Source: Pristiophorus japonicus (lineage: Eukaryota). Taken from it: DNA of 64,000 nucleotides. The notes beneath the pieces are model-generated. The model saw only the letters and a program-made list of their open reading frames with translations, did not search any database and was not told where the DNA came from. Positions within the stretch are counted from its first letter, which is position 1, and every line of letters begins with the position of its first letter. The DNA lies in the NCBI RefSeq assembly GCF_044704955.1, contig NC_091992.1, positions 128,092,001 to 128,156,000 on the forward strand, in the 5' to 3' direction. Made by a program: the position numbers and the translations under genes. Positions 3,221 to 51,102 of the stretch are shown here, one piece after another.

Positions 3221-5802
3221 AGAGAGTTGTGTACAGACCATCAAACAGTAATAGTGAGGTTGGGGATGGCATCAAACAAGAAATTAGGGATGCGTGCAAT
3301 AAAGGTACAGCAGTTATAATGGGTGACTTTAATCTACATATTAATTGGGCTAACCAAGCTGGTAGCAATGCGGTGGAGGAGGATTTCCTGGAGTGTTATT
3401 AGGGATGGCTTTCTAGACCAATATGTCAAGGAACCAGCTAGAGAGCTGGCCATCCTAGACTGGGTGATGTGTAATGAGAAAGAACTAATTAGCAATCTTG
3501 TTGTGCGAGGCCCCCTGGGGAAGAGTGACCATAATATGGTAGAATTCTTTATTAAGATGGAGAGTGCCACAGTTAATTCAGAGACTAGGGTCCTGAACTT
3601 AAGGAAAAGTAACTTCGATGGTAAGAGACGTGAATTGGCTAGGATCGACTGACAAATGATACTTAAAGGTTGACAGTGGATAGGCAATGGCAGACATTTA
3701 TAGATTACATGGATGAACGTCAACAATTGTCCATCCCTGTCTGGAGTAAAAATAAAAAGGGGAAGGTAGCTCAACCAAGGCTAACAAAGGAAATTAGGGA
3801 TAGTGTTAAATTCAAGGAAGAGGCATATACATTGGCCAGAAAAAGCAGCAAACCTGAGGACTGGGAGAAATTTAGAATTCAGCAGAGGAGGACAAAGGGT
3901 CTAATTAGGAGGGGGAAAATAAAGTATGAGAGGAAGCTTGCAGGGAATATAAAAACTGACTGCAAAAGCTTCTATAGATATGTGAAGAGAAAAAGATTAG
4001 TAAAGACCAATGTAGGTGCTTTGCAGACAGAATCAGGTGAATTTATAATGGGGACCAAAGAAATGGCAGACCAATTGAACAAATACTTTGGATCTGTCTT
4101 CACTAAGGAAGACACAAATAACCTGCTGGAAATACTGGGGGTTCGAGGGACTAGCGAAAAGGAGGAACTGAAGGAAATCCTTATTAGTCAGGAAATTGGG
4201 TTAGGGAAATTGATGGGATTGAAGGCCGATAAATCCCCAGGGCCTGATAGGCTGCATCCCAGAGTACTTAAGTACCTAGAAATAGTGGATGCATTGGTGA
4301 TAATTTTCCAACATTCTATTGACTCTGGATCAGTTCCTAGGGACTGGATGGTAGCTAATGTAACACCACTTTTTAAAAAAGGAGGGAGAGAGAAAACAGG
4401 GAATTATAGACCGGTTATCCTGACATCAGTGGTGGGGAAAATGTTGGAATCAATTATTAAAGATGAAATAGCAGTGCATTTGGAAAGCAGTGACAGGATC
4501 GGTCCAAGTCAGCATGGATTTATGAAAGGGAAATCATGCTCGACAATTCTTCTAGAATTTTTTGAGGATGTAACTAGTAGAGTGGACAAGGGAGAACCAG
4601 TGGATGTGGTGTATTTGGACTTTCAAAAGGCTTTTGACAAGGTCCCACACAAGAGATTAGTGTGCAAAATTAAAGCACATGGTATTGGGGGTAATGTATT
4701 GACGTGGATAGAGAACTGGTTGGCAGACAGGAAGCAGAGAGTTGGAATAAACGGGTCCTTTTCAGAATGGCAAGCAGTGACCAGTGGGGTGCCACAGGGT
4801 TCAGTGTTGGGACCCCAGCTATTTACAATATATCAATGATTTAGATGAAGGAATTGAATGTAATATCTTCAAGTTTGCAGATGACACTAAGCTGGGTGGC
4901 GGTGTAAGCTCTGAGGAGGATTCTAAGAGGCTGAAGGGTGACTTGGACAGGTTAGGTGAGTGGGCAAACGCATGGCAGATGCAGTATAATGGATAAATGT
5001 GAGGTTATCCACTTTGGTGGCAAAAACAGGAAGACAGAATATTATCTGAATGGTGACAGATTAGGAAAAGGGGAGGTGCAACGAGACCTGGGTGTCATGG
5101 TACATCAGTCATTGAAGTTTGGCATACAGGTGCAGCAGGCGGTGAAGAAGGCAAATGGCATGTTAGCCTTCATAGCTCGAGGATTTGAGTATAGGAGCAG
5201 GGAGGTCTTACTGCAGTTGTACAGGGCCTTGGTGAGCCACACCTGGAATATTGTATTCAGTTTTGGTCTCCTAAACTGAGGAAGGATGTTCTTGTTATTG
5301 AGGGAGTACAGCGAAGGTTTACCAGATTGATTCCCGGGATGGCAAGACTGACATATGAGGAGTGACTGGATCAACTGGGCTTGTATCCACTGGAGTTTAG
5401 AAGAGAGGGGATCTCATAGAAACATATAATATTCTGACGGGATTGGACAGGTTAGAGGCAGTTTGAATGTTCCCGTTGCTGGGGAGTTCAAGAACTAGGG
5501 GTCACAGTCTAAGAATAAGGGGTAAGCCATTCAGGACCGAGATGAGGAGAAACTTCTTCACTCAGAGAGTGATTAACCTGTGAAATTCTCTACCGCAGAA
5601 AGTTGTTGATGCCAGTTCGTTAGATATATTCAAAACGGAGTTAGATATGGTCCTTAAGGCTAAGGGGATCAAGGGGTATGGAGAGAAAGCAGGAAAGGGG
5701 TATTGAGGGAATGATCAGCCATGATCTTATTGAATGGCGATGCAGGCTTGAAGGGCCGAATGGCCTGCTCCTGCACCTAATTTCTATGTTTCTGTTTCTA
5801 TG
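3221..5802 (+). mobile_element. CR1 LINE ORF2 (endonuclease end + RT) with 3' tail, decayed
   Basis: ORFs 3323..3652, 3670..4839 and 4956..5279 (KSPGPD, NYRPV, YLDFQKAFDKVPH, SGVPQGSVLGP, FADDTKL); TTCTATGT-type tail repeats near 5780-5802. Confidence 0.95.
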
Positions 5803-13368: not shown

Positions 13369-16300
13369 AGTGTGCTCTGATTCGGGACCATCTCAAATCT
13401 AAAGAAGGCATCATTATCTCGAGATACCGCTTTTACAAGCATGTTGGTTCTGAGGGCCAGGAGCTGGCGGAATTTGTTGCCGTCTCGCTGGGCCGTGTAA
13501 GTTTGGAACCGCGTTGGAAGACATGCTGCGTGACGTCTTTGTAACAGGCCTAAACCACGAGGTGATCCTGCGGAAACTGCTGGCTGCGGAGGCGCTGGAT
13601 CTGAGCAGGGCCATCACGATCGCCCAGGCTTGCCTGACCACAGTCGATAGTACAAAGCAGATATCCTCGCAGAGTCGGAACTCCACGGCAAGTACTGTGC
13701 TCCAGATTGTGTCATCGGTTAGCGGAGCTGCATATGGCAGGGCCCAGCCGACTGTGTTTGCGAAACCTGTAGCTACTCGAAGTCCGCCATTGGGCACGAA
13801 TCCGATTTCACCCTGTTGGCGTTGTGGGGGCAATCATCGGCCTCATCAGTGCCGTTTCAGACAGTATATTTGTAGAGGCTGTGCGAAAATGGGGCACCTT
13901 CAGCGGGGTGTGTTCGCAGCTCAGTAAGCGTGCTGCGACACACCATGTGAATGATGATGACCGATCCGGAGCGGATCCGGCAATGTAACCCGAGATACCC
14001 AAGGAGGAAGTGTTTAGTGTACATTCATTCCTGGCAAAGAGCCGACCGATAATGATTAAAGTAAAATTGTACGGCGTGCCGGTATCTATGGAATTAGACA
14101 CAGGTGCGAGTCAGTCAATTATGAGCCAGAGGACTTTCGAAAAGCTGTGGGACACCAAGGCCGTGAAACCCAAGCTGAGTCCAGTAAATGCAAAATTGCG
14201 TACCTACACCAAAGAGCTCATACCAGTGATTGGCAGTGCAGCAGTCACGGTGTCGTACGATGGGGCGGTTCATGATCTATTGCTGTGGATCATTCCAGGC
14301 AATGGTCCAACGCTGTTGGGCAGCAGTTGGCTCAAAAAAATAAAGTGGAACTGTAACGATATTAAAGCTTTGTCATTGGTGGATGACGCTTCGTGTGCTC
14401 AAGTGCTGAGCAAATTTCCCTCGCTGTTTGAACCGGGCATCGGCAACTTCACGGGAGCCAAGGTGCAGATCCACCTGGACTCAGATGCAAGACCCGTCCA
14501 TCACAAAGCCCGGGCGGTCCCGTACATGATGAGGGAGAAGGTCGAAATCGAACTGGACAGACTCCAACATGAAGGGGTCATTTCACCGGTCGAATTTAAC
14601 GAATGGGCTAGTCCCATTGCTCCTGTGCTGAAGAGCGATGGCACTGTCAGGATTTGTGGAAACTACAAGGTTACGATCAACCGAGTTTCGAAACAGGATC
14701 AGTACCTATTACCAAAGGCTAATGACCTGTTTGCACCGCTAGCCGGGGGAAAGTCGTTCACCAAATTGGATTTGACGTCAGCCTATATATATGACACAGG
14801 AGTTTGTCGAAGTGTCGAAGAAACTTACGTGCATCAATACCCATAAAGGGCTGTTCATTTACAACAGGTGTCCTTTCGAAATTCGCTCGGCTGCAGCCAT
14901 ATTTCAGAGAAACATAGAGGGTTTACTGAAGTCCGTCCCTAGAACCGTGGTGTTCCAAGAAGACATTCTGGTCACAGGTCGTGATACTGCCGAACACCTG
15001 CACAACCTGGAAGAGGTTCTACGTCATCTGGACAAAGTAGGGCTCAGGCTGAAACGTTCAAAGTGCATCTTTATGGCACTGGAAATCGAATTCCTGGGAA
15101 GGAAGTTTGCTGCAGACGGCATCAGGCCTACAGACTCGAAAACAGAGGCCATCAAAAATGCACCCAGATCCCAGAATGTGCTGCGTTCGTTCCTTGGTCT
15201 TCTCAACTAATTTGGTAATTTCTGACCTAAATTGAGCACATTATTAGAGCCATTGCACAAGCTGCTCAGAAAAAGCGACAACTGGGTTTGGGGTGTATTT
15301 CAAGACAGGGCCATCGAGAAGGCTAGAAATCTGCTTTGTTCCAACAAATTGCTGGTACATTATGACCCGTGCAAGCGTTTAGTATTGGCCTGTGATGCTT
15401 CATCACATGGGGTTGGTTGTGGGCTCCAACAATCCAATGAGTCGGGTAAACTACAACCCGTTGCGTATGCGTCGAGAAGCATATCTAAAGCAGAAAGAGC
15501 CTACGGCATGGTGGAGAAAGAAGCTTTAGCCTGCGTATATGGGTTTAAAAATATACACCAGTATCTGTTTGGGCTTCGTTTCGAGCTTGAAACCGATCAC
15601 AAGCCGCTCATATCTTTGTTTTCAGAGCATCGTGGTATCAAATACCAATGCATCGTCCCGCATCCAGAGATGGGTGCTGACATTATGTGCCTATCATTAT
15701 GTATTTGCCATAGACCTGGCACCGAGAATTGTGCTGATGCATTGAGCCATTTACCATTGCCCACGCCGGAGGTGGAAATGCCACAGCCCGCAGACCAGTT
15801 AGTCATGGATGCCTTTGAGAGTGAAGGGTCGCCTGTCACTGTTTAACAAGTTAGGACCTGGACCAGCCAGGATCCGATCTTATCGGTTGTAAAATGTTGT
15901 GTCCTTAGTGGTGATTGGTTGGCCATTCCCAGGGAAGTCTGTGATGAGACCAAACCTTACAACCGTCGCAAAGACAAATTATCCATTCAATCTGATTGTT
16001 TGCTATGGGATAATCATGTTGTTATGCCCAAGAAAGGCAGGGAGAGATGTGTACGGGATTTACACAGTACCCATCCCAGTATTGTGATGATGAAGGCCAT
16101 TGCCAGGTCCCATGTTTGGTGGCCTGGCATTGACTCTGATTTGGAGTCATGTGTGCATCAGTGCAACACTTGCATGCAGTTAAGCAATGCACCAGTGGAA
16201 TCTCCGCTAAGTCGGTGGTCGTGGCCATCCAAACCATGGTCGAGGATCCACATCGACTATGCGGGTCCTTTCCTGGGCAAAATGTTTTTGGTGATGGTGG

Positions 16301-17158
16301 ATGCGTATTCCAAATGCATAGAATGTGTAATCATGTCATCCAGCACATTCACAGCCACCACTGAGAGCCTTCGTGCCATGTTCGCCACTCATGGTCTGCC
16401 TGACATCAATGGTATCAAGCACGTAAGGTCAGCACCATTCAAACCCACGTCCAATGGTCAAGCGGAGCAGGCCGTCCAAACCATCAAGCAGAGCCTGAAA
16501 CGCGTAACTCACGGTTCTTTGCAGACTTGCTTGTCACGCATACTGCTTAGTTACAGGACGAGACCTCACATGCTTACCGAGGTCCCCCCTGCTGAACTGT
16601 TGATGAAGAGAGGTCTCAAGACTAGGCTCTTGCTTGTCCACCCTGATCTTAACGATCACGTCGAAAACGGACGTCAACATCAGCAGTGGTATCATGATTG
16701 CACTGCCGTGTCACGCGACATCTTTATTAATAATCCTGTGTATGTGCTAAATTATGGTCAAGGCCCCAAGTGGGTCACTGGCACTGTTACAGCCAAGGAG
16801 GGTAACAGGGTGCTTATTGTCAGGCTCACTAATGAGCAAACATGCAGGAGGCACATTGATCAGATGAAATTGCGGCACACAGACAAACCGGAACAGCTTG
16901 AAGAAGACACCATCAATGACCAACCGATTCATGTTCAGCCATCAGAAGACCCTGCTGTTGTCAATGAATCTGGACCTTCAATCCCCGACATGGACACTGC
17001 CACTCCCATTAGATCGGCTACCCAGCCTCAAGACATCAATGACTCGGAGAGCTCACCCAGATCTGGAATTGAACTGAGACGATCAACTAGGGAGCGGAAA
17101 GCCCCGGTCCGTCTCAATTTGTAAATCGGACTGATACCAAGATCATGGGGGGGAATGA
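13369..17158 (+). mobile_element. Gypsy/Ty3 LTR retrotransposon B, 5'-truncated: gag (zinc knuckles), protease, RT, RNase H, integrase; decayed
   Basis: CWRCGGNH..C..ICRGCAKMGH zinc knuckles (13514..13927); MELDTGAS protease (14010..14846); RT and RNase H (14791..15846); integrase (15919..17124); PPT GGGGGGGAA near 17147-17155. Confidence 0.95.
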
Positions 17159-20870: not shown

Positions 20871-21166
20871 CCTGGCATCACGGAGACATGGCTCCAGGGT
20901 GACCAAGGCTGGGAATTCAACATCCAGGGGTATTCAACATTTAGGAAGGATAGACAGAAAGGAAAAGGAGGTGGGATAGCGTTGATGGTTAAAGAGGAAA
21001 TTAACGCAATAGTAAGGAGGGACATTAGCTTGGATGATGTGGAATCTGTATGTGTGGAGCTGCGGAATACCAAAGGGCAGAAAACACTACTGGGAGTTGT
21101 GTACAGACCACCAAACAGTAGTAGTGAGGTTGGGGACAGTATCAAACAAGAAATTAGGGATGCGTG
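20871..21166 (+). mobile_element. CR1 endonuclease fragment, 5' part of the copy split by the ERV
   Basis: GITETWLQG..FRKDR..GGG..GVVYRPPNS..EIRDAC; continues at 27219. Confidence 0.9.
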
Positions 21167-21846
21167 TGTTAGCGTTAGTGTTTTCTTAGAAGAATCACTC
21201 AACACTCAGGGTCGGTTCCAATGCTGAAGCAGCTTTTATTACGCTCAGCGGGAAGGAAAAACTCAGGACCGTATCCAGGTTTCTCTTCACAGAACAAAGG
21301 TTTACATGTACCTTTATATGTTTCACAACAGTTACAAAACAGTTTACTACAGTTACACAGCCCATCACGGCTGGACACAAGCCAATCACAACGATTATAG
21401 ATTACATATAGGTTCTTTTAACCCAATAGAATTCTCCTAGTATCCAGGGAACCATATGTTCGGTTATTGTCAGCTTGGGCTGATCGATGACTTTATAGGT
21501 TCTCTCCCTAGTTCTTTCATCTGGGAGAAATAATTGGTTTATAGCCTTGTTTACAGCAAATGGCTTCCCTCTTATCTTTCTTCCTGGGGAATTAATTGGT
21601 TTATGACCTTGCTCACAGGAGATGGTTTCCTTCTTATCTCTGTCTTCCCAGGCATTCCTACAGTGGGCCTCACAGGGTTATTGCTCGGTCAGTGAACGTT
21701 CAACAGTTCACAGCTTGACTACCTGGTTTCCCATCATGCCTGGGCAGCCATTTTATGTGTGTGTCCATTTAAGCTTATGTGAGTTTTAAATATCCAGCAG
21801 GTGCCTAATGCCTAAGTCTATATATATCTTTCTACTCTCTACAACA
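21167..21846 (-). mobile_element. ERV 3' LTR (680 bp)
   Basis: Minus strand reads TGTTGTAGAG...CGCTAACA. TATAAA near 21313-21318, AATAAA near 21235-21240, CCAAT near 21382, and two imperfect ~62-bp U3 repeats with CCAAT and AGATAAG motifs (about 21525-21650). Confidence 0.95.
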
Positions 21847-21862
21847 ATTCCCCCTTTCGGTA
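21847..21862 (-). other. ERV polypurine tract
   Basis: Minus strand GAAAGGGGGAAT immediately precedes the 3' LTR. Confidence 0.85.
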
Positions 21863-21983
21863 AAGGGACTAGTCCTAGTCCCCTTTTAACCAAAATACTG
21901 CCTTTATCTGATATTTGTGCACGGCCCGGTATTCCTTGCCTCAACGTGCTGGCCAGTCACGCGGTTTCAGGAGTTCCGGTTGC

Positions 21984-23997
21984 TTAAATCAAATTAACAA
22001 AGGCTAGCTCCTCCCGTCCCCTTATCAAACAGGCTTGTTTAATATCCAGGGAACGGTGATTAGTCCGTTTCCGCCATTTGTGGCGCCTGCATACCTGGCA
22101 GGCCATCACGCCCCAGGTTATTGCTAAGATTAATTGTATACCGACCAGTGTGTGTGAAATAATTCGGATCCATGGGTGGATGTTCACATTTATTCCCCAG
22201 TCCCAGACCTTTCTCCACCAACTCTGACTTTGTAAGTCTACCTCGGTATCTTCTTCCAGTTCTTTGATTTTAGTTTGTAGCTGGTGATAGATTTTTACAG
22301 ATTGCCCCACTCTGAGCCTTAACTCCCGTAATACCTCGGTTAGATGTGGGATAGGGACCTGCTCTGGCTCGTCATAATCCTGTAAATGATCATGGAGCTG
22401 ATTGGTTACCTCGATAACTTCGGACTTCCGGCGCCTAACCTGGGTGATATGCGCTTGCCCGATCGCGACAGGTCGTAGTGGTGTAAAGCAAAAGTTTGGC
22501 TGCGGTATAGGGCACTGCAGGTCATTATACTGGTATGAACGCTCTGTGGTAGAGACGCAGTATCTTCCCCTCCCTCCGTAGCCTGCCCTCGCGAAGTGCA
22601 TGTGTGCGGGCACTATTTCTAGTACACACCCGTTGGTTCGGTTAAACCCGCACTCGTCTAGTTCACCTCGGCCCACCGGGTGAGGGCATACTGTGATTTC
22701 CCCCTTTTGCTTGCAATCTGCTAGGGAAATCCCAGTAAGTATGTTGTTTCGACGAACGGCAGAGGTGGTGGTTAGGTAGTAGCGTATGGAGACATTTTCC
22801 CGTATTACTCCGATATTCTCTCGTTGGTATAGGGGGAACGGCCCTGAGTCCGGCGTGACTATAGGGATCATCAGGACTGTCCCTATCCCGGTAGTCCTAC
22901 CCATCTGGCAATCTGGAATTGCTGGGTATACTCTGGTCAGTCCCTTCAGAGTACAATTATCCAGTGTCCCCCTTTGGTTAGCCAACTGAGCTAAATCTTC
23001 CTGTTCTCTATCAATGAGGTGATTGATGGTTCTGGCGTGAGCTTCCAGAACTGAGATGCCATCCAGCTGGATTTTGGCACCCTCCTTTCCTAGGTTGGCT
23101 TGGTCTTCCTGGTTTTGCTCCACCCTCTCCAATAACCCCTTCATCACCCCTCTAAGCTGTTCCACCCTCTCATTTAATTCTTGTATGTCTATCGAGTTCA
23201 CTACGGAGGTCTCTGTATTGAAAACGGTAGCAACATCATTAACTATTTCCCTCTTCATCCTGGGGGCTAACCCCTGTCCCCGGAACCTACTGGCACCCAT
23301 TGCATCGGCAGCCTGCTGCATTACAACTTTACTTAATACATTGTACATCTTCCTTGACTGTTCTGTACAGTATTCCGGCATCTGGATGCCTGAAATATTG
23401 ATCAGAACAGGCACAATTTCATGTCTAACATTATCATACAACAGTTCCCCCTCGCTGTACATTACAATCCCATTCTCTGGTCCCTTCGTAGTTATGGGGC
23501 AAGGCAGTTCCTCGGGCAATGTAGTGATTCTTATGGGGCGCGGTGTCGGAGGGGGTGAGAAACATACATACAATGATATTGCAGCCGCCCCCACCTCCTC
23601 GTAATACCCACACAGCCCCATTCCCTTCTTGCGGATGACTGATTGCTGGGATTGTCCCGGAGGCGCACAAATTATGCCGAAAGTACATTCATCAGGCCCT
23701 TTGACATCCCTCCGTTTAATGCATCTGCTCCTTATACCCGTGGAGCACTGTACACATACTCTTATTCTTATTAGGATTCTTATTAGGATTCACTTGTAAC
23801 CATGCATTAAAATAAGTCCTGTCCTTGCTCCAGTCCTTGGCTGCTGGAATGCACATTCCGTCCGTTAAATTAAACAAGACTCCATAGTTCATGTAGTTGT
23901 TTATTTCCAGCGTGCTCTGCTGTCCGTCGGTGTTGCCCAGGGTACGTGCATGTCGCAGGGCTATCCATATTACGAGTAGCGCCGTTCGTATTCCCAT
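21984..23997 (-). CDS. env: ERV envelope / class I fusion glycoprotein (about 670 aa when one frameshift near 23760-23790 is repaired)
   Basis: Signal peptide MGIRTALLVIWIALRHART from ATG 23997; the second frame is open from about 23790 to 21984. Furin site RMKR (23250-23261), HR1 coiled coil, Cys-rich domain, HR2, Trp-rich SWWRKVWDWG, TM IISHTLVGIQLILAITWGVMAC and a basic tail. Confidence 0.88.
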
Positions 23998-24085
23998 TCC
24001 GGTAAGTATTATCTGTAATTTTAAACAGACGGCCTGGTCGTCACCAGGGGTTAAGTTTTTTTGCTCTACGAGTGTCCCTGTCACC

Positions 24086-24105
24086 CTGCAAAATCAGAAG
24101 CACAA
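24086..24105 (-). promoter_or_regulatory. env splice acceptor
   Basis: Minus strand TTGTGCTTCTGATTTTGCAG|G, about 90 nt upstream of the env ATG. Confidence 0.75.
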
Positions 24106-24107
24106 GG

Positions 24108-24218
24108 TTATAATCGAACCATTTCGAGCTGAATCTGTAGGGCGTGCGCCCGTGTCTTTACCCACTTAAATATTACCCAAACTCCTATGACCAAGGCCAA
24201 AGCTATTCCTCCAAACAT
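24108..24218 (-). CDS. 36-aa single-pass membrane micro-ORF upstream of env
   Basis: Hand translation MFGGIALALVIGVWVIFKWVKTRAHALQIQLEMVRL*; shorter than any ORF in the supplied track. Confidence 0.45.
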   Translation of the reverse strand: MFGGIALALVIGVWVIFKWVKTRAHALQIQLEMVRL

Positions 24219-24329
24219 CGCTGTCTGCTTTACCGTTAGGTTGGGTTTGTGGACTACACCTACCCACCGTGGGGTACATTGGCTCTATTGCCAGAGGTGA
24301 CGGTGCTATGGCTGCGCACTGCACTATCC

Positions 24330-25984
24330 GTCTAGTCCCGTTATCTCTTCCAGCCTGTTTATCTTAGCTTTTAACTCTTCAATTTGTTTTATTGAATATC
24401 TATTTCTTTATTGTATCAGGCAAGTATTATTACATAAGCTAGTTCTGTTTTTATTTTTGTTTCCTCTGTTAGGTGAGTCTTTTTTTTCCTATTAAGAAAT
24501 CCAAATTAATAATGTTCAGTATAAAACGGCTGTCAATGGAAAGGGTTAACTCCTTTCCAGGTTTGTAAGAAGACCTGATGTCATTACGTGACTTCACGTA
24601 ATCATCTGAAAAAAAGTCTTTGTGCCTTCAAAACTGGCTTCGAAATTAGGAATCCGTTAAAAACAGCATAAATCATTAGAGTAAACTCCAATGTTTTCTT
24701 AACTTCTAATTCAAGTACTTGCCAAAGAAATTTTTTTTTTTTTTTATTGTTTTAAAACAAGACCACACATACAATAGCAATTTTGTTTACTGAAATTCAA
24801 TTCTGTTTTTTTTTATTTCTCTCTTTCTCCTCGTTATCTTCAAAACCCTCCTGCTTGTTTAGACTGTTCGGGACTTTTTTGATAAACACTGTCCATTTTG
24901 GAAATCTTTTCAAACTGCATTGAAACTTTTGAAAATTCGAATCCATGTAGAGTGTTTTTTACTTATTATTTTTTTTTTCTCTTCTAATTAAACCAATATC
25001 TTTTTCACAGCAAACATCAACTAGTATTTAGTAAGTTATGTCTTTTTCCATTTAGTCCGTTACATCTTTTTTTTTTCTTTCTTCAAATTAGGTTTTGTAT
25101 TTTACACGGAGGGTTCGTAACTCCATAAAGTTGTTAATTTAAAATCATGCTCCAGTTTCAAAGTCGTTACTAAAGCTTGCTGTTTTTTAACATTTTCCAA
25201 AAGTTCCTTTTACACCTTCGCAGATAGCTCGCCACTTGCCCAGGAGTTTGACCTGATCAGATTTAATTTAATCTTTTTCTTTTTTTTTTTAAATCCACCT
25301 CAGTATTTCCTGTGCCTTCTCTGAATATCTCAAAATCCCAATTCAAACTTTGTAATTTCAATCTTTATTTAAAACTTTTTTTTTTTAGAAGCTCTTTTTT
25401 TTTAAAGCATTCTTTATCTCATTCCGAGACTAAATTTATGTCTTTCAACCCAATCAATCATTGCATGTTTTCTTTCGGCAAGTAAGTGAGCATGTCAAAT
25501 AAATATTTTGCTCAACAAACCTATTCTTTATTTGTTTATTTTCCTAGCTCCGTAACTTATCATCCGAATAAATCCACACCTGCGTTTCTAACTTAAATGT
25601 CTTAAAACTTCCCACATACAGGACAACATTACAAAGGGTTTAAAAAAAGACTTTCACTCTGTTTCTAAAATAAACAGACACTTGCATTCCTCTTCCAACC
25701 AGGCTTTCGGAACATGAAAACATAAAAAAATCACACAGACACTTCTCACTCAACGATCAGACATTTACAACAGTCTCTCTTCTTGTTTTGGCCGTCTCTA
25801 TTTTTGGATCCATGACCTTTCAGGGAATTCGTAGTTTTATCTAAATAATTCCTCACATAACTAATTCCTGAGGATTCCACCCTGCTTTAATCATTTTTTC
25901 AATTAGCTTCTTTTGTTTTTCCGCCAGGTGGCGGGTAAGCGACCCTTCTGGTCCCCACTCGAGTTTACTTGTTTTCATGGCCAT
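24330..25984 (-). pseudogene. Decayed A-rich gag/accessory region of the ERV
   Basis: Short protein-like remnants (MAMKTSKLEWGPEGSLTRHLAEKQKKLIEKMIKAGWNPQELVM*; KELLENVKKQQALVTTLKLEHD; IKQIEELKAKINRLEEITGLDG*) are broken by many poly-A runs. No RT or integrase motifs seen. Confidence 0.55.
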
Positions 25985-26477
25985 TCCTGGGTAGGGCTAG
26001 TACCGTTAGGAATCTACTCTCAGAGGTCCACTTTCTTTCTAGCGCGACTTGTAGTAAACTGTCTCTTGGCTACTGTCAGGTCACAAGTTCTGCTGTTACA
26101 CAAACTTATACAATTCTTAAAAACGCGTTTAAGCAATTCCCGCAGTGCTCTACGTATCCTTAACGACTACCTACCACCGCTCAGCCCGTTGGTCCGACCC
26201 TGTTCACAGGTTTGGATTCCGTTAGCCGCTGTACACCGCTTGGTTCTACCCCGGGGTATTTCAAATTACACTACTGGGTCCGGAAGATGTCTCTCGGTAT
26301 CACGATCCCACGGTCTAAGTGTGTTCCCTACGCCTACTTGGTTCCTGGCCATCACGTGGGACAAAAGTCCTCTTAATTCAGGCTCAGGCTAGGCGTTTGA
26401 GATATTAGACCGTCTCCTCATGTCGATCAACCAGCTTCCACCTTCCGCACCCTTTATACTTAAAAATTGTTTTTTAT

Positions 26478-26486
26478 ACTCACCCG
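26478..26486 (-). promoter_or_regulatory. ERV major splice donor
   Basis: Minus strand CGG|GTGAGT, about 40 nt downstream of the PBS. Confidence 0.78.
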
Positions 26487-26520
26487 GGTTTTTTCCAAGG
26501 GCGTCCAGCGACTCCGGGAA

Positions 26521-26538
26521 ATCCCGTCGACTACGCCA
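26521..26538 (-). other. Primer-binding site complementary to tRNA-Ser
   Basis: TGGCGTAGTCGACGGGAT, 1 nt after the 5' LTR. The complement of the vertebrate tRNA-Ser 3' end is TGGCGTAGTCGGCAGGAT (16/18 match). Confidence 0.85.
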
Positions 26539-26539
26539 T

Positions 26540-27218
26540 TGTTAGCGTTAGTGTTTTCTTAGAAGAATCACTCAACACTCAGAGTCGGTTCCAATGCTGA
26601 AGCAGCTTTTATTACGCTCAGCGGGAAGGAAAAACTCAGGACCGTATCCAGGTTTCTCTTCACAGAACAAAGGTTTACATGTACCTTTATATGTTTCACA
26701 ACAGTTACAAAACAGTTTACTACAGTTACACAGCCCATCACGGCTGGACACAAGCCAATCACAACGATTATAGATTACATATAGGTTCTTTTAACCCAAT
26801 AGAATTCTCCTAGTATCCAGGGAACCATATGTTCGGTTATTGTCAGCTTGGGCTGATCGATGACTTTATAGGTTCTCTCCCTAGTTCTTTCATCTGGGAG
26901 AAATAATTGGTTTATAGCCTTGTTTACAGCAAATGGCTTCCCTCTTATCTTTCTTCCTGGGGAATTAATTGGTTTATGACCTTGCTCACAGGAGATGGTT
27001 TCCTTCTTATCTCTGTCTTCCCAGGCATTCCTACAGTGGGCCTCACAGGGTTATTGCTCGGTCAGTGAACGTTCAACAGTTCACAGCTTGACTACCTGGT
27101 TTCCCATCATGCCTGGGCAGCCATTTTATGTGTGTGTCCATTTAAGCTTATGTGAGTTTTAAATATCCAGCAGGTGCTAATGCCTAAGTCTATATATATC
27201 TTTCTACTCTCTACAACA
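26540..27218 (-). mobile_element. ERV 5' LTR (679 bp)
   Basis: Identical to 21167-21846 except one substitution (CAGGGTC/CAGAGTC) and one 1-bp indel (GTGCCTAA/GTGCTAA), by visual comparison. Confidence 0.95.
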
Positions 27219-29685
27219 CGTGCAATAAAGGTACAGCAGTTATCATGGGAGACTTTAATCTACATATAGATTGGGCTAACCAAACTGGTAGCAATACAGT
27301 GGAGGAGGATTTCCTGGAGTGTATTAGGGATGGTTTTCTAGACCAATATGTCGAGGAACCAACTAGAGGGCTGGCCATCTTAGACTGGGTGATGTGTAAT
27401 GAGAAAGGACTAATTAGCAATCTTGTTGTGCAAGGTGCCTTGGAGAAGAGTGACCATAATATGGTAGAATTCTTTATTAAGATGGAGAGGGACACAGTTA
27501 ATTCAGAGACTAGGATCCTAAACTTAAGGAGAGTTAACTTCGATGGTATGAGACGTGAATTGGCTAGAATAGACTGGCAAATGATACTTAAAGGGTTGAT
27601 GGTGGATAGGCAATGGCAAACATTTGAAGATCACATGGATGAACTTCAACAATACCTGTCTGGAGTAAAAAATAAAACGGGGAAGGTGGCTCAACCGTAG
27701 CTAAGAAGGGAAATTAAGGATAGTGTTAAATCCAAGGAAGAGACATATAAATTGGCCAGAAAAAGCAGCAAGCCTGAGGACTGGGAGAAATTTAGAATTC
27801 AGCAGAGGAGGACAAAGGATTTAATTAGGAGAGGGAAAATAGAGCATGAGAGGAAGTTGCCAGGAACATAAAAACTGACTGCAAAAGCTTCTATAGATAT
27901 GTGAAGAGAAAAAGATTAGTGAAGACAAACGTAGGCCCCTCGCAGTCAGATTTAGGTGAATTTATAATGCGGAACAAAGAAATGGCAGACCAGTTGAACA
28001 AATACTTTGGTTCTGTCTTCACGAAGGAAGACCCGAATAACCTTCCGGAAATACTTAGGGACCGAGGATCTAGTGGGAAGGAGGAACTGAAGGAAATCCT
28101 TATTAGGCGGGAAATTGTGTTAGGGAAATTGATGGGATTGAAGCCCGATAAATCCCCAGGGCCTGATAATTTGCATCCCAAAGTACTTAAGGAAGTGGCC
28201 CTAGAAATAGTGGATACATTGGTGATCATTTTCCAACAGTCTATCGACTCTAGATCAGTTCCTATGGACTGGAGGGTAGCTAATGTAACACCTTTTTTTT
28301 AAAAGGGAGGGAGAGAAAAAACGGGTAATTATCGACCGGTTAGCCCGACATCAGTAGTGGGGAAAATGTCGGAATCAATTATTAACGATGAAATAGCAGC
28401 GCATTTGGAAAGCAGTGACAGGATCGGTCCAAGTCAGCTTGACAAATCTTCTGGAATTTTTTGAGGATGTAACTAGTAGAGTGGACAAGGGAGAACCAGT
28501 GGATGTGGTGTATATGGACTTTCGAACGGCTTTTGACAAGGTCCCACACAAGAGATTGGTGTGCAAAATTAAAGCACATGGTATTGGGGTAATGTACTGA
28601 CATGGATAGAGAACTCGTTGGCAGACAGGAAGCAGAGTCGGGATAAATGGGTCCTTTTCAGAATGGCAGGCAGTGACTAGTGGGGTGCTGCAGGGCTCAG
28701 TGCTGGGACCCCAGCTATTTACAATATACATTAATGATTTAGATGAAGGAATTGAGTCTAATATCTCCAAGTTTGCAGATGACACTAAGCTGGGTGGAGG
28801 TGTGAGCTGTGAGGAGAACGCTAAGAGGCTGCAGGTGACTTGGGCAGGTTAGGTGAGTGGGCAGCTGCATGGCAGATGCAGTATAATGTGGATAAATGTG
28901 AGATTATCCACTTTGGTGGCAAAAACAGGAAGGCAGAATATTATCTGAATGGCGACAGATTAGGAAAAGGGGAGGTGCAACGAGACCTGGGTGTCATGGT
29001 ACATCAGTCATTGAAAGTTGGCATGCAGGTACAGCAGTGGTGAAGAAGGCAAATGGTATGTTGGCCTTCATAGCTAGGGGATTTGAGTATAGGAGCAGGG
29101 AGGTCTTACTGCAGTTGTACAAGGTCTTGGTGAGGCCTCACCTGGAATATTGTGTTCGGTTTTGTTCTCCTAATGTGAGGAAGGACGTTCTTACTATTGA
29201 GGGAGTGCAGCGAAGGTTCACCAGACTGATTCCCGGGATGGCAGGACTGACATAAGAGGAGAGACTGGATCGACTGGGCCTGTATTCATTGGAGTTTAGA
29301 AGGATGAGAGGGGATCTCATAGAAACATAAAATTCTGATGGGACTGGACAGGTTAGATGCAGGAAGAATGTTCCCGATGTTGGGAAAGTCCAGAACCAGA
29401 GGACACAGTCTAAGGATAAGGGGTAAGCCATTTAGGACTGCGATGAGGAGAAACTTCTTCACTCAGAGAGTTGTTAACCTGTGGAATTCCCTACTGCCGT
29501 GAGTTGTTCACTGGATATATTCAAGAGGGAGTTAGATATGGCCCTTACGGCTAAAGGAATCAAGGGGTATGGAGAGAAAGCAGGAAAGGGGTACTGAGGT
29601 GAATGATCAGCCATGATCTTATTGAATGGTGGTGCAGGCTCGAAGGGCCGAATGGCCTACTCCTGCACCTATTTTCTATGTTTCT
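27219..29685 (+). mobile_element. CR1 LINE ORF2 and tail, 3' part of the copy split by the ERV
   Basis: MGDFNLHIDW.., KSPGPD, FADDTKL and RPHLEYC motifs; TTCTATGTTTCTAT tail. Confidence 0.93.
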
Positions 29686-31665
29686 ATCCACCCTGTTCAT
29701 TACATCCTCAAAGAGTTCCAGCAAATTTGTCAAAGATGACTTCTCCTTCATAAATCCATGCTGACTCTGCCTGACTGCACTATGCTTTTCCAACTGTCCT
29801 GCTGCTGCTTCTTTAATAATGGACTCCAACATTTTCCCAGATGTTAGGTTAACTGGTCTATAGATTCCTGCTTTTTGTCTGCCTCCTTTTTTAAAAAGGG
29901 GCGTTACATTTGCAGTTTTCCAACCTGCTGGGACCTCCCCAGAATCCAGGGAATTTTGGTAAATTACAACCAATGCATCCTCTATCCCTGCCGCTACTTC
30001 TCTTAAGATCATAGGATGCAAACCATCAGGTCCAGGTGATTTATTCGACTTTAGTCCCATTATCTTACTGAGTACCACCTCCTTAGTGATTGTGATTGTG
30101 TTAAGTTCCTCCCCGCCTCCCCATAGCCCGCAGAGCACCTCGAGTCTCATCGCCGAGAGCATGCAGAAGCCAAGCGCAGGCAGTGGAAGGAGCTGGGGCA
30201 TTGAATAAATTTAAGACAGAAATAGACAGTTTCTTAAACAATAAAGGGTTATGGGGAGTGGGCAGAGAAGTGGAGCTGAGTCCATGATCAGATCAGCCAT
30301 GATCTTATTGAACGGCGGAGCAGGCTCTAGGGGCTGTTTGGCCTATTCCTGCTCCTATTTCTTATGTTCTTATGTAAAGATTGATACAAAATATGTGTTC
30401 AGAGTTTCTGCCATCTCCATGTTCCCCATTACTAATTCCCTGGTCTCATCCTCTAAGGGACCAACATTTACTTTAGCCACTCTTTATATACCTATAGAAA
30501 CTCATGCTATCTGTTTTTATATTTCGTGCTAGTTTACTTTCATAGTCTATCTTCCCTTTCTTAATCATTTTTTTGGTCATTCTTTGCTGGCTTTTAAAAG
30601 CTTCCAAATCTTCTGTCCTCTCACTAGTTTTGGCCACTTTGTATGCCCTTGTTTTTAATTGGATACCGTCCATTATTTCTTTAGTTCGCCACAGATGGCT
30701 ATCTTTTCTTTTACACCCTTTTCTCCTCACTGGAATATATTTTTCTTGAGAGTTGTGAAATATCTCCTTAAATGTACGCCACTGTTCATCAACCGTCCTA
30801 CACTTTAATCTATTTTCTCAGTCCACTTTAACCAACCCTGCCCTCATACCTTCATAGTCTCCTTTATTTAAGCTTAGTACGCTGGTTTGAGATCCAACTT
30901 TCTCACCCTCCATCTGAATTTGAAATTCAACCATGTTATGATCACTCATTCCAAGGGAATCCTTTACTAGGTGATTGTTTATTAGTCCCATTACACAGGA
31001 CCAGATCCAAGATAGCCTCAAGGAACCCGTCCCTTATACACTCTATGAACTCGTCCTCAAGGCTACCCCGACCAATTTAATTTGTCTGATCAATATGGAG
31101 GTTAAAATCACCCATGGTTATTGCTATTCCCTTTTTACAAGCCCCCACTATTTCCTGGTTTATACTCCGACCAACAGAGTTGCTACTATTAGGGGGACTA
31201 TAGATTACGCCCACCAATGACTTTTTCCCCTTATTATTCCTTATCTCCACCCAAACTGTTTCAACATCCTGATCATTTGAGCCAATATCGTTTCTCACTA
31301 TTGCAGTGATCCCATCCTTTATCAATAGAGCTCCTCCACCTCCTTTTCCTTTCTATCTGTCCTTCCGGATTGTCAAATACCCCTGAATATTTAATTCCCA
31401 GTCCTGGTCACCTTGCAACCACGTCTCTGTGATAGCTATCAGATCGCACCCATTTGTATCTATTTGTGCCGTCAACTCATCTATTTTGTTACAAATGCTA
31501 CAAGTGCATTTAGACAAAGTGCCTTTAAATTTGTTTCTTTACCCTTTTTTCCTGCTTGTTTCCTCTCTCCTTCAAACTCACTTTATTTGTTTTTGCTTTC
31601 TAATTCCAGCTTTACTCCCTTCCCTACTGAATCTATTTCCAGGTTCCCATCCCCCTGCCAACCTT
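29686..31665 (-). mobile_element. CR1 LINE carrying an internal opposite-strand RTE-fragment/CR1-tail insert (30128-30375)
   Basis: ORFs 31077..31325, 30818..31021, 30473..30730 and 29560..30201 are CR1-like. The insert matches 9475-9720. Confidence 0.85.
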
Positions 31666-49179: not shown

Positions 49180-51102
49180 GGGCTCAAATTTCCTCAGGAG
49201 TTGCTCCGTTTTTTTTGGAGCAACTTGATTTTTCTGGAGTATCTTTTTAGATGCAATTTAGGCCATTTAATTTGCGCCAGTGTAAGTGAGTTAGTTCGGT
49301 TCTTTTTTAAGTTTTTTTTTCAAAAGGGGGCTTTACAGCCCTTTACACCTGTTTTGGCCATTTAAGCAAGGTTAGCCAGCTAAAAGTTACTCCAAACTAA
49401 TTTAGGCCAGCGTAAGTGGGCACTCTTGTACGTTCAGAAAAACCTTGCGGTGACTTAAGAAATCAGCACAGGCAACCAGAGATAGGCGGGGTGGGGGGAA
49501 GGGGACCTTGCAAAGCACTAAACACCTTCACAACAACATTAAAGAAGCATAAATACATTTAAAGCACCAAGCACTAAACAAAGCACAAAAAGTAATAAGC
49601 AATTAATTAACAAATAAAAGATAGAAGGAACCCTGCACCTAAAGCACCAAGACCAAAGTAATAAGCAATCAGAATGGCAGGCAGTGACTAGTGGGGTACC
49701 GCAAGGTTCTGTGCTGGGGCCCCAGCTGTTTACACTGTACATTAATGATTTAGATGAGGGGATTAAATGTAGTATCTCCAAATTTGCGGATGACACTAAG
49801 TTGGGTGGCAGTGTGAGCTGCGAGGAGGATGCTGTGAGGCTGCAGAGCGACTTGGATAGGTTAGGTGAGTGGGCAAATGCATGGCAGATGAAGTATAATG
49901 TGGATAAATGTGAGGTTATCCACTTTGGTGGTAAAAACAGAGAGACAGACTATTATCTGAATGGTGACAGATTAGGAAAAGGGGAGGTGCAAAGAGACCT
50001 GGGTGTCATGGTACATCAGTCATTGAAGGTTGGCATGCAGGTGCAGCAGGCGGTTAAGAAAGCAAATGGCATGTTGGCCTTCATAGCAAGGGGATTTGAG
50101 TACAGGGGCAGGGAGGTGTTGCTACAGTTGTACAGGGCCTTGGTGAGGCCACACCTGGAGTATTGTGTACAGTTTTGGTCTCCTAACCTGAGGAAGGACA
50201 TTCTTGCTATTGAGGGAGTGCAGCGAAGGTTCACCAGACTGATTCCCGGGATGGCGGGACTGACCTATCAAGAAAGACTGGATCAACTGGGCTTGTATTC
50301 ACTGGAGTTCAGAAGAATGAGAGGGGACCTCATAGAAACATTTAAAATTCTGACGGGGTTAGACAGGTTAGATGCAGGAAGAATGTTCCCAATGTTGGGG
50401 AAGTCCAGAACCAGAGGTCACAGTCTAAGGATAAGGGGTAAGCCATTTAGGACCGAGATGAGGAGGAACTTCTTCACCCAGAGAGTGGTGAACCTGTGGA
50501 CTTCTCTACCACAGAAAGTTGTTGAGGCCAATTCACTAAATATATTCAAAAAGGAGTTAGATGAGGTCCTTACTACTAGGGGGATCAAGGGGTATGGCGA
50601 GAAAGCAGGAATGGGGTACTGAAGTTGAATGTTCAGCCATGAACTCATTGAATGGCGGTGCAGGCTAGAAGGGCCGAATGGCCTACTCCTGCACCTATTT
50701 TCTATGTTTCTATTAATCAGTAAATAACAAATAACAAATAGAAGTCCTATCTTCGGGAACGCAGCGGGCCGCCGATGAGGGAGCCCATTCGGCCCGGGCT
50801 AGGGACGGCATGCTTCGGGCCCCTCCCACACAGCCTGCAGCGCGCACTCTCAGATTCAGCCTGCTAAGAGCTACTGCACATGCGCGCAGACTGTAGCGCG
50901 CATGTGCAGAGGTCCCGGCACTGTTTTCAGCACCGGGATCTGGCTCCGCCCCCAATCCACTGGACCACGCTACACCATCACCGAGGAGAGGCTGGGGAGC
51001 GGCCAGAATCGGGAGGAAGATTTTCGACGCACTTGGAGGCGGACAAAAGCGACACACCTCGGGTGAGGGCGCCAGAAAAAGGGGTTGGGGAAATTTGAGC
51101 CC
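49180..51102. mobile_element. Harbinger-type MITE with a nested CR1
   Basis: TIRs GGGCTCAAATTTCC / GGAAATTTGAGCCC and a TAT TSD (49177-49179, 51103-51105); body homologous to 8452-9295. Confidence 0.88.
49670..50712 (+). mobile_element. Young 5'-truncated CR1 with an uninterrupted 312-aa ORF2 C-terminus
   Basis: ORF 49684..50622 has no internal stops; tail TTCTATGTTTCTA; AATCAG occurs at both junctions. Confidence 0.93.

Follow-up and report, generated by a model that had tools for sequence, protein, structure and literature searches.

Within a 64,000-nucleotide stretch of the Pristiophorus japonicus genome (contig NC_091992.1, positions 128,092,001 to 128,156,000 of assembly GCF_044704955.1; hereafter the window, whose own numbering we use), an envelope (env) gene lies on the minus strand of an endogenous retrovirus (ERV). 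We consider it likely that this env, now broken, belongs to a gag-pol-deleted member of a young shark family of ERVs of the grade of snakehead retrovirus (SnRV), and that the family's Env is of the F type (class Ib), homologous to the Envs of foamy viruses and lokiretroviruses. The significance of the locus rests with the family, not with the defective window copy.

A probable F-type envelope protein

The main env frame of the window encodes 601 amino acids (aa; 21984-23789, minus strand, as are all env features below) and comprises a Cys-rich N-terminal domain, an F2-like part and an F1-like part. It overlaps a first frame (23716-23997) that supplies a signal-peptide-like start and the beginning of the N-terminal domain, stops after 93 codons, and aligns with the N-termini of other shark Envs. 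A furin-type site, RMKR, occupies residues 177-180 of the 601-aa frame (23250-23261) and is followed by 421 residues, much as a preliminary description of this sequence had it (about 420 aa), and R-x-K/R-R falls in the same alignment column in most shark and frog homologues. Downstream lie a putative, weakly hydrophobic fusion segment (best KD19 0.71) with the first heptad repeat (HR1; together 23004-23249), a Cys-rich block (22485-22715) whose first part falls inside the stretch aligning to the transmembrane (TM) subunit of foamy-virus Env, and a region (22098-22346) that holds HR2, a Trp-rich membrane-proximal segment (22194-22220) and a membrane-spanning segment (22098-22172; KD19 up to 1.9), each where the preliminary description had placed it. 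Hydrophobic residues make up 61% of heptad a/d positions in HR1 and 58% in HR2. Gamma-type Envs are defined, in the part of bioRxiv 2021.11.23.469661 available to us, by an immunosuppressive domain (ISD) and a CX6CC motif in the TM subunit. A motif scan of the window Env matched neither CX6CC nor an ISD-type [LY]QNR..LD motif, as had been claimed, which supports the earlier view that this is not a gamma- or beta-type Env.

Single-sequence searches of the window Env against Pfam and the PDB returned chance matches only. Searching 1.84 billion proteins with a profile yielded 49 matches, of which those named come from sharks and frogs; the alignments excluded two unrelated Calx-beta proteins, along with chimeric gene models, that were among these matches. 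A word-based search with a wide Env profile gave 21 proteins; each is a close relative, and those with a name are all from sharks. Homologous Envs are thereby found in several shark genera, Chiloscyllium punctatum included, and in frogs, at about 20-30% identity. No named SnRV Env was among the Env search matches, and no lokiretroviral Env was identifiable among the 49 profile matches, only some of which were named. Among solved chains, two family profiles rank foamy-virus Env first (E 4.8e-4 and 8.1e-4; we take PDB 8ozh, 8rm0 and 8rm1 to be foamy-virus Env), and the match spans about 160 profile positions of the TM subunit with its cysteines aligned. Solved F proteins of paramyxoviruses, pneumoviruses, baculoviruses and errantiviruses gave no sequence or profile match at E<=10, and neither family profile reached a paramyxovirus or pneumovirus F chain at that threshold. 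At sequence level, the expectation that Mononegavirales F or lokiretroviral Env would rank above spumavirus Env is contradicted, the best solved matches being spumavirus Env. Foamy Env itself has the F fold, class Ib (PMC11468914, in the text available), so a foamy-first result lowers the case for an Env specific to lokiretroviruses or Mononegavirales, not the case for an F-type Env.

Other comparisons point the same way. The order of signal peptide, F2-like part, furin site, HR1, Cys-rich block, HR2 and TM is that of paramyxovirus, pneumovirus and baculovirus F and of the F-type Env of errantiviruses, from all of which the family differs by its extra N-terminal domain. Published lokiretroviral Envs have the same layout, and by eye share ordered motifs with the family Env along its length (GP..GIV...G.L..N, RxKR, G.(I/V)P, L.IP, N(I/V)G and C...C...CG; PMC7947760, in the portion available). 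They differ in starting at the F2-like motif, before which the family has about 130 extra Cys-rich residues, in their hydrophobic fusion peptides, where the family segment is less so, and in lacking the family's extra Cys in the C-terminal block. Foamy Env, for its part, has a leader-peptide TM and a large receptor-binding insert before the furin site, and the family Env has neither. Atlas feature neighbours of the Env are Baculo_F, Fusion_gly and Gypsy clusters at 0.91-0.92. From these sequence comparisons, the family Env likely adopts the F fold, and it is probably an F-type fusogen homologous to lokiretroviral Env. Of the lokiretrovirus-like F-type fusogen first proposed, the F type and homology to lokiretroviral Env thus remain probable, and specificity to lokiretroviruses or Mononegavirales becomes less likely.

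Several observations weigh against this assignment. The window protein matched no Pfam fusion family, nor did any of 47 relatives among the 25 of 49 families listed for them, and PF00523, which Loki-Str Env does match, was found in neither the window protein, a full-length copy nor relatives. The foamy matches are weak (E 5e-4 to 1e-2) and cover about 160 of 450-500 profile positions, the two Env family profiles overlap, and the comparison with lokiretroviral Envs was made by eye. Atlas recognition is low (1608 vs 2300), which makes its scores weak evidence.

The N-terminal domain appears to vary among these Envs. Distant homologues from sharks, frogs and others carry an Ig-like N-terminal domain (judged from a UniRef name and a V-set match at E 0.045) where the family has its Cys-rich one, which suggests that the two may be swappable receptor-binding modules. 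Many copies of a 677-aa homologue occur in Mantella aurantiaca. For one distant homologue, the single Atlas neighbour listed is a chordate cluster of 874 aa (score 0.82), which we treat as no more than a lead; avian Ovex1 ORF3 is described, in the text available, as an Env-like protein of 873-874 aa without CX6CC on an SnRV-related Gag-Pol. Two gene models fuse related env pieces to Niban1-like and cadherin-related host genes, by annotation artefact or exonisation.

The retrovirus that carries this envelope

The pol gene of full-length family copies gives a different affinity from the one that the Env might suggest. The family reverse transcriptase (RT) reads LDIANGFWS, LPQGFHNSP and YVDD, the motifs of SnRV (LDI.NGFWS, LPQGFH, YVDD), and the lokiretroviral motif PFGY.NSP is absent from all 120 related RT stretches. 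It is 53-55% identical to named shark and teleost relatives, 39% to Rauscher murine leukaemia virus (MLV), and 42.5%, across 273 aa, to a database protein that has SnRV motifs; its core matches MLV at E 2e-42 vs Ty3 at 1e-19. The RNase H matches MLV-type chains at E 4e-34 vs 7e-4 for 2lsn, presumably a foamy RNase H, and does not fall in the foamy/lokiretrovirus group. In an RT tree built from 49 of the 120 rows, a 24-row clade of Rauscher MLV and what we take as gamma/epsilon-like ERVs (support 100/99) excludes the family, and in a 29-row analysis a joint clade of the family and the SnRV-motif protein was not rejected (p-AU 0.365). The family thus combines SnRV RT motifs with a place outside gamma/epsilon, and both motifs and scores keep its RT apart from a clade sister to canonical retroviruses. 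In the available supplement of the lokiretrovirus paper (PMC7947760), LPQGFH occurs three times, each in SnRV, and PFGY 92 times, in lokiretroviral Pol in the text examined.

An RT with SnRV-type motifs beside an MLV-type RNase H argues against a lokiretrovirus, and we conclude from these sequences that the family is best classed as a canonical retrovirus of SnRV-like grade, in clade Huo (Xu et al. 2018) or adjoining it. The preliminary description's lokiretroviral placement of the element is not sustained by the family's Pol. Two results weigh against our placement: neither RT tree, with rows that hold no lokiretroviruses, foamy viruses or Ty3, recovers the family as sister to SnRV, and the best solved-structure matches of the integrase are foamy. 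No relative of the family RT was found among viral contigs. SnRV-like ERVs are known from the elephant shark (CmiERV lineage I; PMC4422223) and across vertebrates (clade Huo; PMC6001957), and a 9.5-kb SnRV-like provirus has already been reported from a cartilaginous fish (PMC4422223), in each case according to the text available. SnRV itself differs from the family in the tail of its Env (136 aa vs about 37 aa), in having one zinc knuckle in Gag rather than two, and in that the family shows no accessory frames of at least 200 aa.

Might the element nonetheless be a genuine lokiretrovirus, which would then be the first of its kind in cartilaginous fishes? Its Env motifs, compared by eye, are ordered as in lokiretroviruses, with which it also has in common an RXKR site, a coiled coil, a TM and a dual RNase H, and yet we regard this as extremely unlikely: the RT has LPQGFH and not PFGY.NSPA, the Env has no PF00523 match, and the RNase H is MLV-type, whereas that of lokiretroviruses groups with foamy viruses in the sources available to us. 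Wang and Han, in the part of their study available, found no lokiretrovirus in three Orectolobiformes genomes, and Chiloscyllium punctatum has this Env. An F-like env is not, by itself, diagnostic of lokiretroviruses.

A foamy-like ERV of cartilaginous fishes would account for the foamy matches of the Env profiles and the integrase and for the weak hydrophobicity of the fusion segment. It is very improbable given that Gag has two zinc knuckles (zf-CCHC in two stretches), which foamy-like fish ERVs lack in the literature available, that gag and pol share one frame with a stop, that the primer binding site (PBS) is of the tRNA-Ser type, that the RNase H is MLV-type, and that the signal peptide is of the cleavable type with no large insert before the furin site.

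A stronger competitor, somewhat unlikely in our view, is recombination in an aquatic host: an SnRV-grade gag-pol would have captured the env of a lokiretrovirus, or of some other virus that bears an F, instead of inheriting one. Incongruence between Env and Pol is common in anamniote ERVs (bioRxiv 2021.11.23.469661, in the text available), and by eye the start motif of the core F2-like part is very close to that of lokiretroviruses. Against it stand the spread of homologous Envs at such low identity over several shark genera and frogs, which means that any capture was ancient, and the lack of an identifiable lokiretroviral Env in the profile search.

Either of two histories would fit an F-type Env on a canonical retroviral Pol: an Env of F type that was ancestral to retroviruses, or a swap of env with lokiretroviruses. 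We tentatively entertain the first of these: an F-type (class Ib) Env may have been the ancestral envelope of retroviruses and lokiretroviruses, surviving in lokiretroviruses, foamy viruses and the SnRV-grade lineage, with gamma and beta Envs as later replacements. If so, the ancestral Env would persist in sharks, frogs and perhaps birds (Ovex1), N-terminal receptor-binding modules would be lineage-specific (Cys-rich here, Ig-like in some relatives), and the shark family would represent a recently infectious orthoretrovirus-like virus still using the ancestral fusogen. Wang and Han favoured independent acquisition of Env by canonical retroviruses and lokiretroviruses since the Envs of the two have no detectable similarity (PMC9040795, in the text available). 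A canonical Pol joined to an Env that resembles those of lokiretroviruses and foamy viruses alike is the case that had been lacking; with it, trees can test ancestry against swap. Surveys that query with gamma and beta Envs, as in the available part of bioRxiv 2021.11.23.469661, would miss such elements. In the literature covered, which took in little of the subscription literature, we found no report of an SnRV-like ERV or a shark ERV with an F-type Env.

Copies, age and selection in the shark genome

A UniRef entry assigned to Pristiophorus japonicus aligns to the genome with 100% identity along 386 aa, as befits a shark host. Among 14 stretches fetched around env matches, with long open frames favoured, eight are full-length proviruses of 9.4 kb and six are of a gag-pol-deleted type in which an A-rich filler replaces gag-pol. 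The full-length copies keep open gag in six cases (469-472 aa), pol in four (1178-1181 aa) and env in seven (737-760 aa). Gag carries zf-CCHC with two zinc knuckles, Pol carries protease, RT, tether, RNase H and integrase, and gag and pol lie in one frame with a TGA between them (6/6 copies checked); no extra frame of at least 200 aa was seen inside full-length copies. Lokiretroviruses, for comparison, have a CGIN1-related integrase and, in some cases, an smc gene. LTR (long terminal repeat) divergence across six full-length copies is 0-0.047. Exact 18-mer counts in the genome are 4,195 for the LTR, 3,280 for the filler, 1,606 for env and 100 for pol, so that by these single markers, which are lower bounds, deleted copies number about 3,280 to 100 that bear pol. 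The family is thus supported as young and recently active, and on this point the preliminary description was right.

In intact copies, we propose that pol would be translated by read-through of the gag stop and env from a spliced RNA, that furin would cut the Env product, that the extra Cys-rich N-terminal domain may bind the receptor, and that fusion would proceed through an HR1/HR2 six-helix bundle on an F-like scaffold. The dN/dS ratio in full-length copies is 0.16 for env (seven copies), 0.24 for pol (four) and 0.26 for gag (six), values that are open to the objection that these copies had been chosen for open frames. Selection on env in these copies is purifying, in keeping with a family that spreads by reinfection.

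The window env carries two lesions. Its signal-peptide-like start (ATG 23997) is in a different frame from the 601-aa main frame, so a real frameshift lies within the overlap of the two frames, and the same split occurs in 20/20 close copies fetched (the closest, out of 40 listed at 96-100% identity). Sequencing error is ruled out as its cause by this sharing, and the need for a frameshift repair that had been noted earlier is genuine; the 20 copies were picked by their likeness to the window and therefore represent one subfamily. The second lesion, overlooked in the preliminary description, is an in-frame gap of 41 codons (near 22986-23009, minus strand) relative to other copies and other sharks, in which these codons exist. 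In a separate set of 20 copies that lack the gap, seven have the frame change at the same place, which makes the frameshift probably the older lesion. Translated from its own ATG, the window copy is unable to yield a complete Env.

This broken env type changes near-neutrally. Its pooled dN/dS is 0.33 (17/20 copies), and within bursts, over the 49 closest pairs, the value (as pN/pS) is 0.57, where a neutral null gives 0.59-0.69; the low pooled value is due to pairs between two bursts, which recombination accounts for. In a tree of the 3' env from 34 copies, the window's burst is nested among young full-length copies, as expected from recombination with helpers, and the second burst, which has the same breaks, groups instead with a filler-type copy. 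We propose that deleted copies, having kept LTRs, PBS, polypurine tract and leader, would have relied on helper proteins in trans for packaging, recombination and integration, and the two-burst pattern is consistent with env as dead cargo that helper viruses move and recombine. The alternative, that env-only elements supply Env or an Env fragment as a helper function or for receptor interference, would explain why env was kept while gag-pol was lost. Filler-type copies with env frames of 722 and 676 aa speak for such a role, as do the downstream frame of at least 601 aa kept in 12/20 window-type copies and the pooled ratio; given a within-burst ratio at the neutral null, a pooled ratio explained by recombination between bursts, and stops in 6/17 gap-free copies, we think it quite unlikely. 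On our reading, the window copy is an ordinary defective, non-autonomous, gag-pol-deleted passenger.

The window provirus and its surroundings

The env-bearing provirus spans 6,052 nt on the minus strand and is without gag-pol. Its 5' LTR (26540-27218, minus strand, TG...CA) and 3' LTR (21167-21846, minus strand) are 99.7% identical over 680 nt, with one transition and one indel between them; the single substitution (Kimura two-parameter distance 0.0015) corresponds to an insertion age of about 0.3 million years at a mammalian rate or 3.4 million years at the shark rate assumed in PMC4422223 (as given in the text available), with wide error. Within each LTR (21513-21639 and 26886-27012), a segment of about 62 nt is duplicated in tandem, its two copies being 80% identical. 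A 4-bp target-site duplication flanks the element (21163-21166 and 27219-27222); across 17 copies with both ends, the duplication is 5 bp in 11, 4 bp in five and absent in one. The insertion interrupts a long interspersed nuclear element (LINE) whose endonuclease domain lies at 27188-27697; the sequences on either side of the provirus run on without a break in a second LINE copy, at 3230-3369.

Next to the 5' LTR, the PBS (26521-26538, minus strand) is of tRNA-Ser(AGA) type with two mismatches to the host tRNA end, and tRNA-Ser(AGA) was the PBS tRNA in 7/8 loci scanned. The window's PBS variant has 712 exact copies in the genome, and no tRNA gene with an end matching it was found. The tRNA-Ser 3' pattern has 1,067 matches genome-wide, and also lies within long tandem arrays with a period of about 1.95 kb (contig C23, about 18.57-20.47 Mb). 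The leader that follows contains a splice-donor-like motif (26478-26484, minus strand), putative on the motif only. A gag stub of 35 codons (25862-25966, minus strand) is 97% identical by tblastn to Gag of a full-length copy, and the A-rich non-coding filler (24223-25861, minus strand; 40% A, longest frame 53 aa) stands in place of gag-pol. This filler of about 1.6 kb is common to other deleted copies and has no blastn match in the four full-length copies tested. A hidden reading frame or smc-like gene in it was considered and rejected, as the longest frames are 53-83 aa in 6/6 copies and the gag stub is the only match. A short hairpin at 24538-24560, whose loop holds the palindrome GTTAAC, is conserved in 12/12 filler-type copies checked, and its 18-mer has 3,280 occurrences; speculatively, it recalls a kissing-loop dimerisation signal. 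Between filler and env lies a region common to full-length copies (23998-24222, minus strand) with a putative splice-acceptor-like motif near 24086 (minus strand), and the polypurine tract (21847-21857, minus strand) adjoins the 3' LTR. Rfam gave no match within 21000-27400.

Elsewhere in the window, remnants of an LTR-retrotransposon pol (protease, RNase H and integrase zinc finger) occupy 13989-17124, and a second copy, diverged from the first, lies close to the start of the window (about 1-2900). LINE copies with RT or endonuclease domains, which we take to be CR1-type, fill much of the rest (3300-5800, 27200-29700, 49600-50700 and others).
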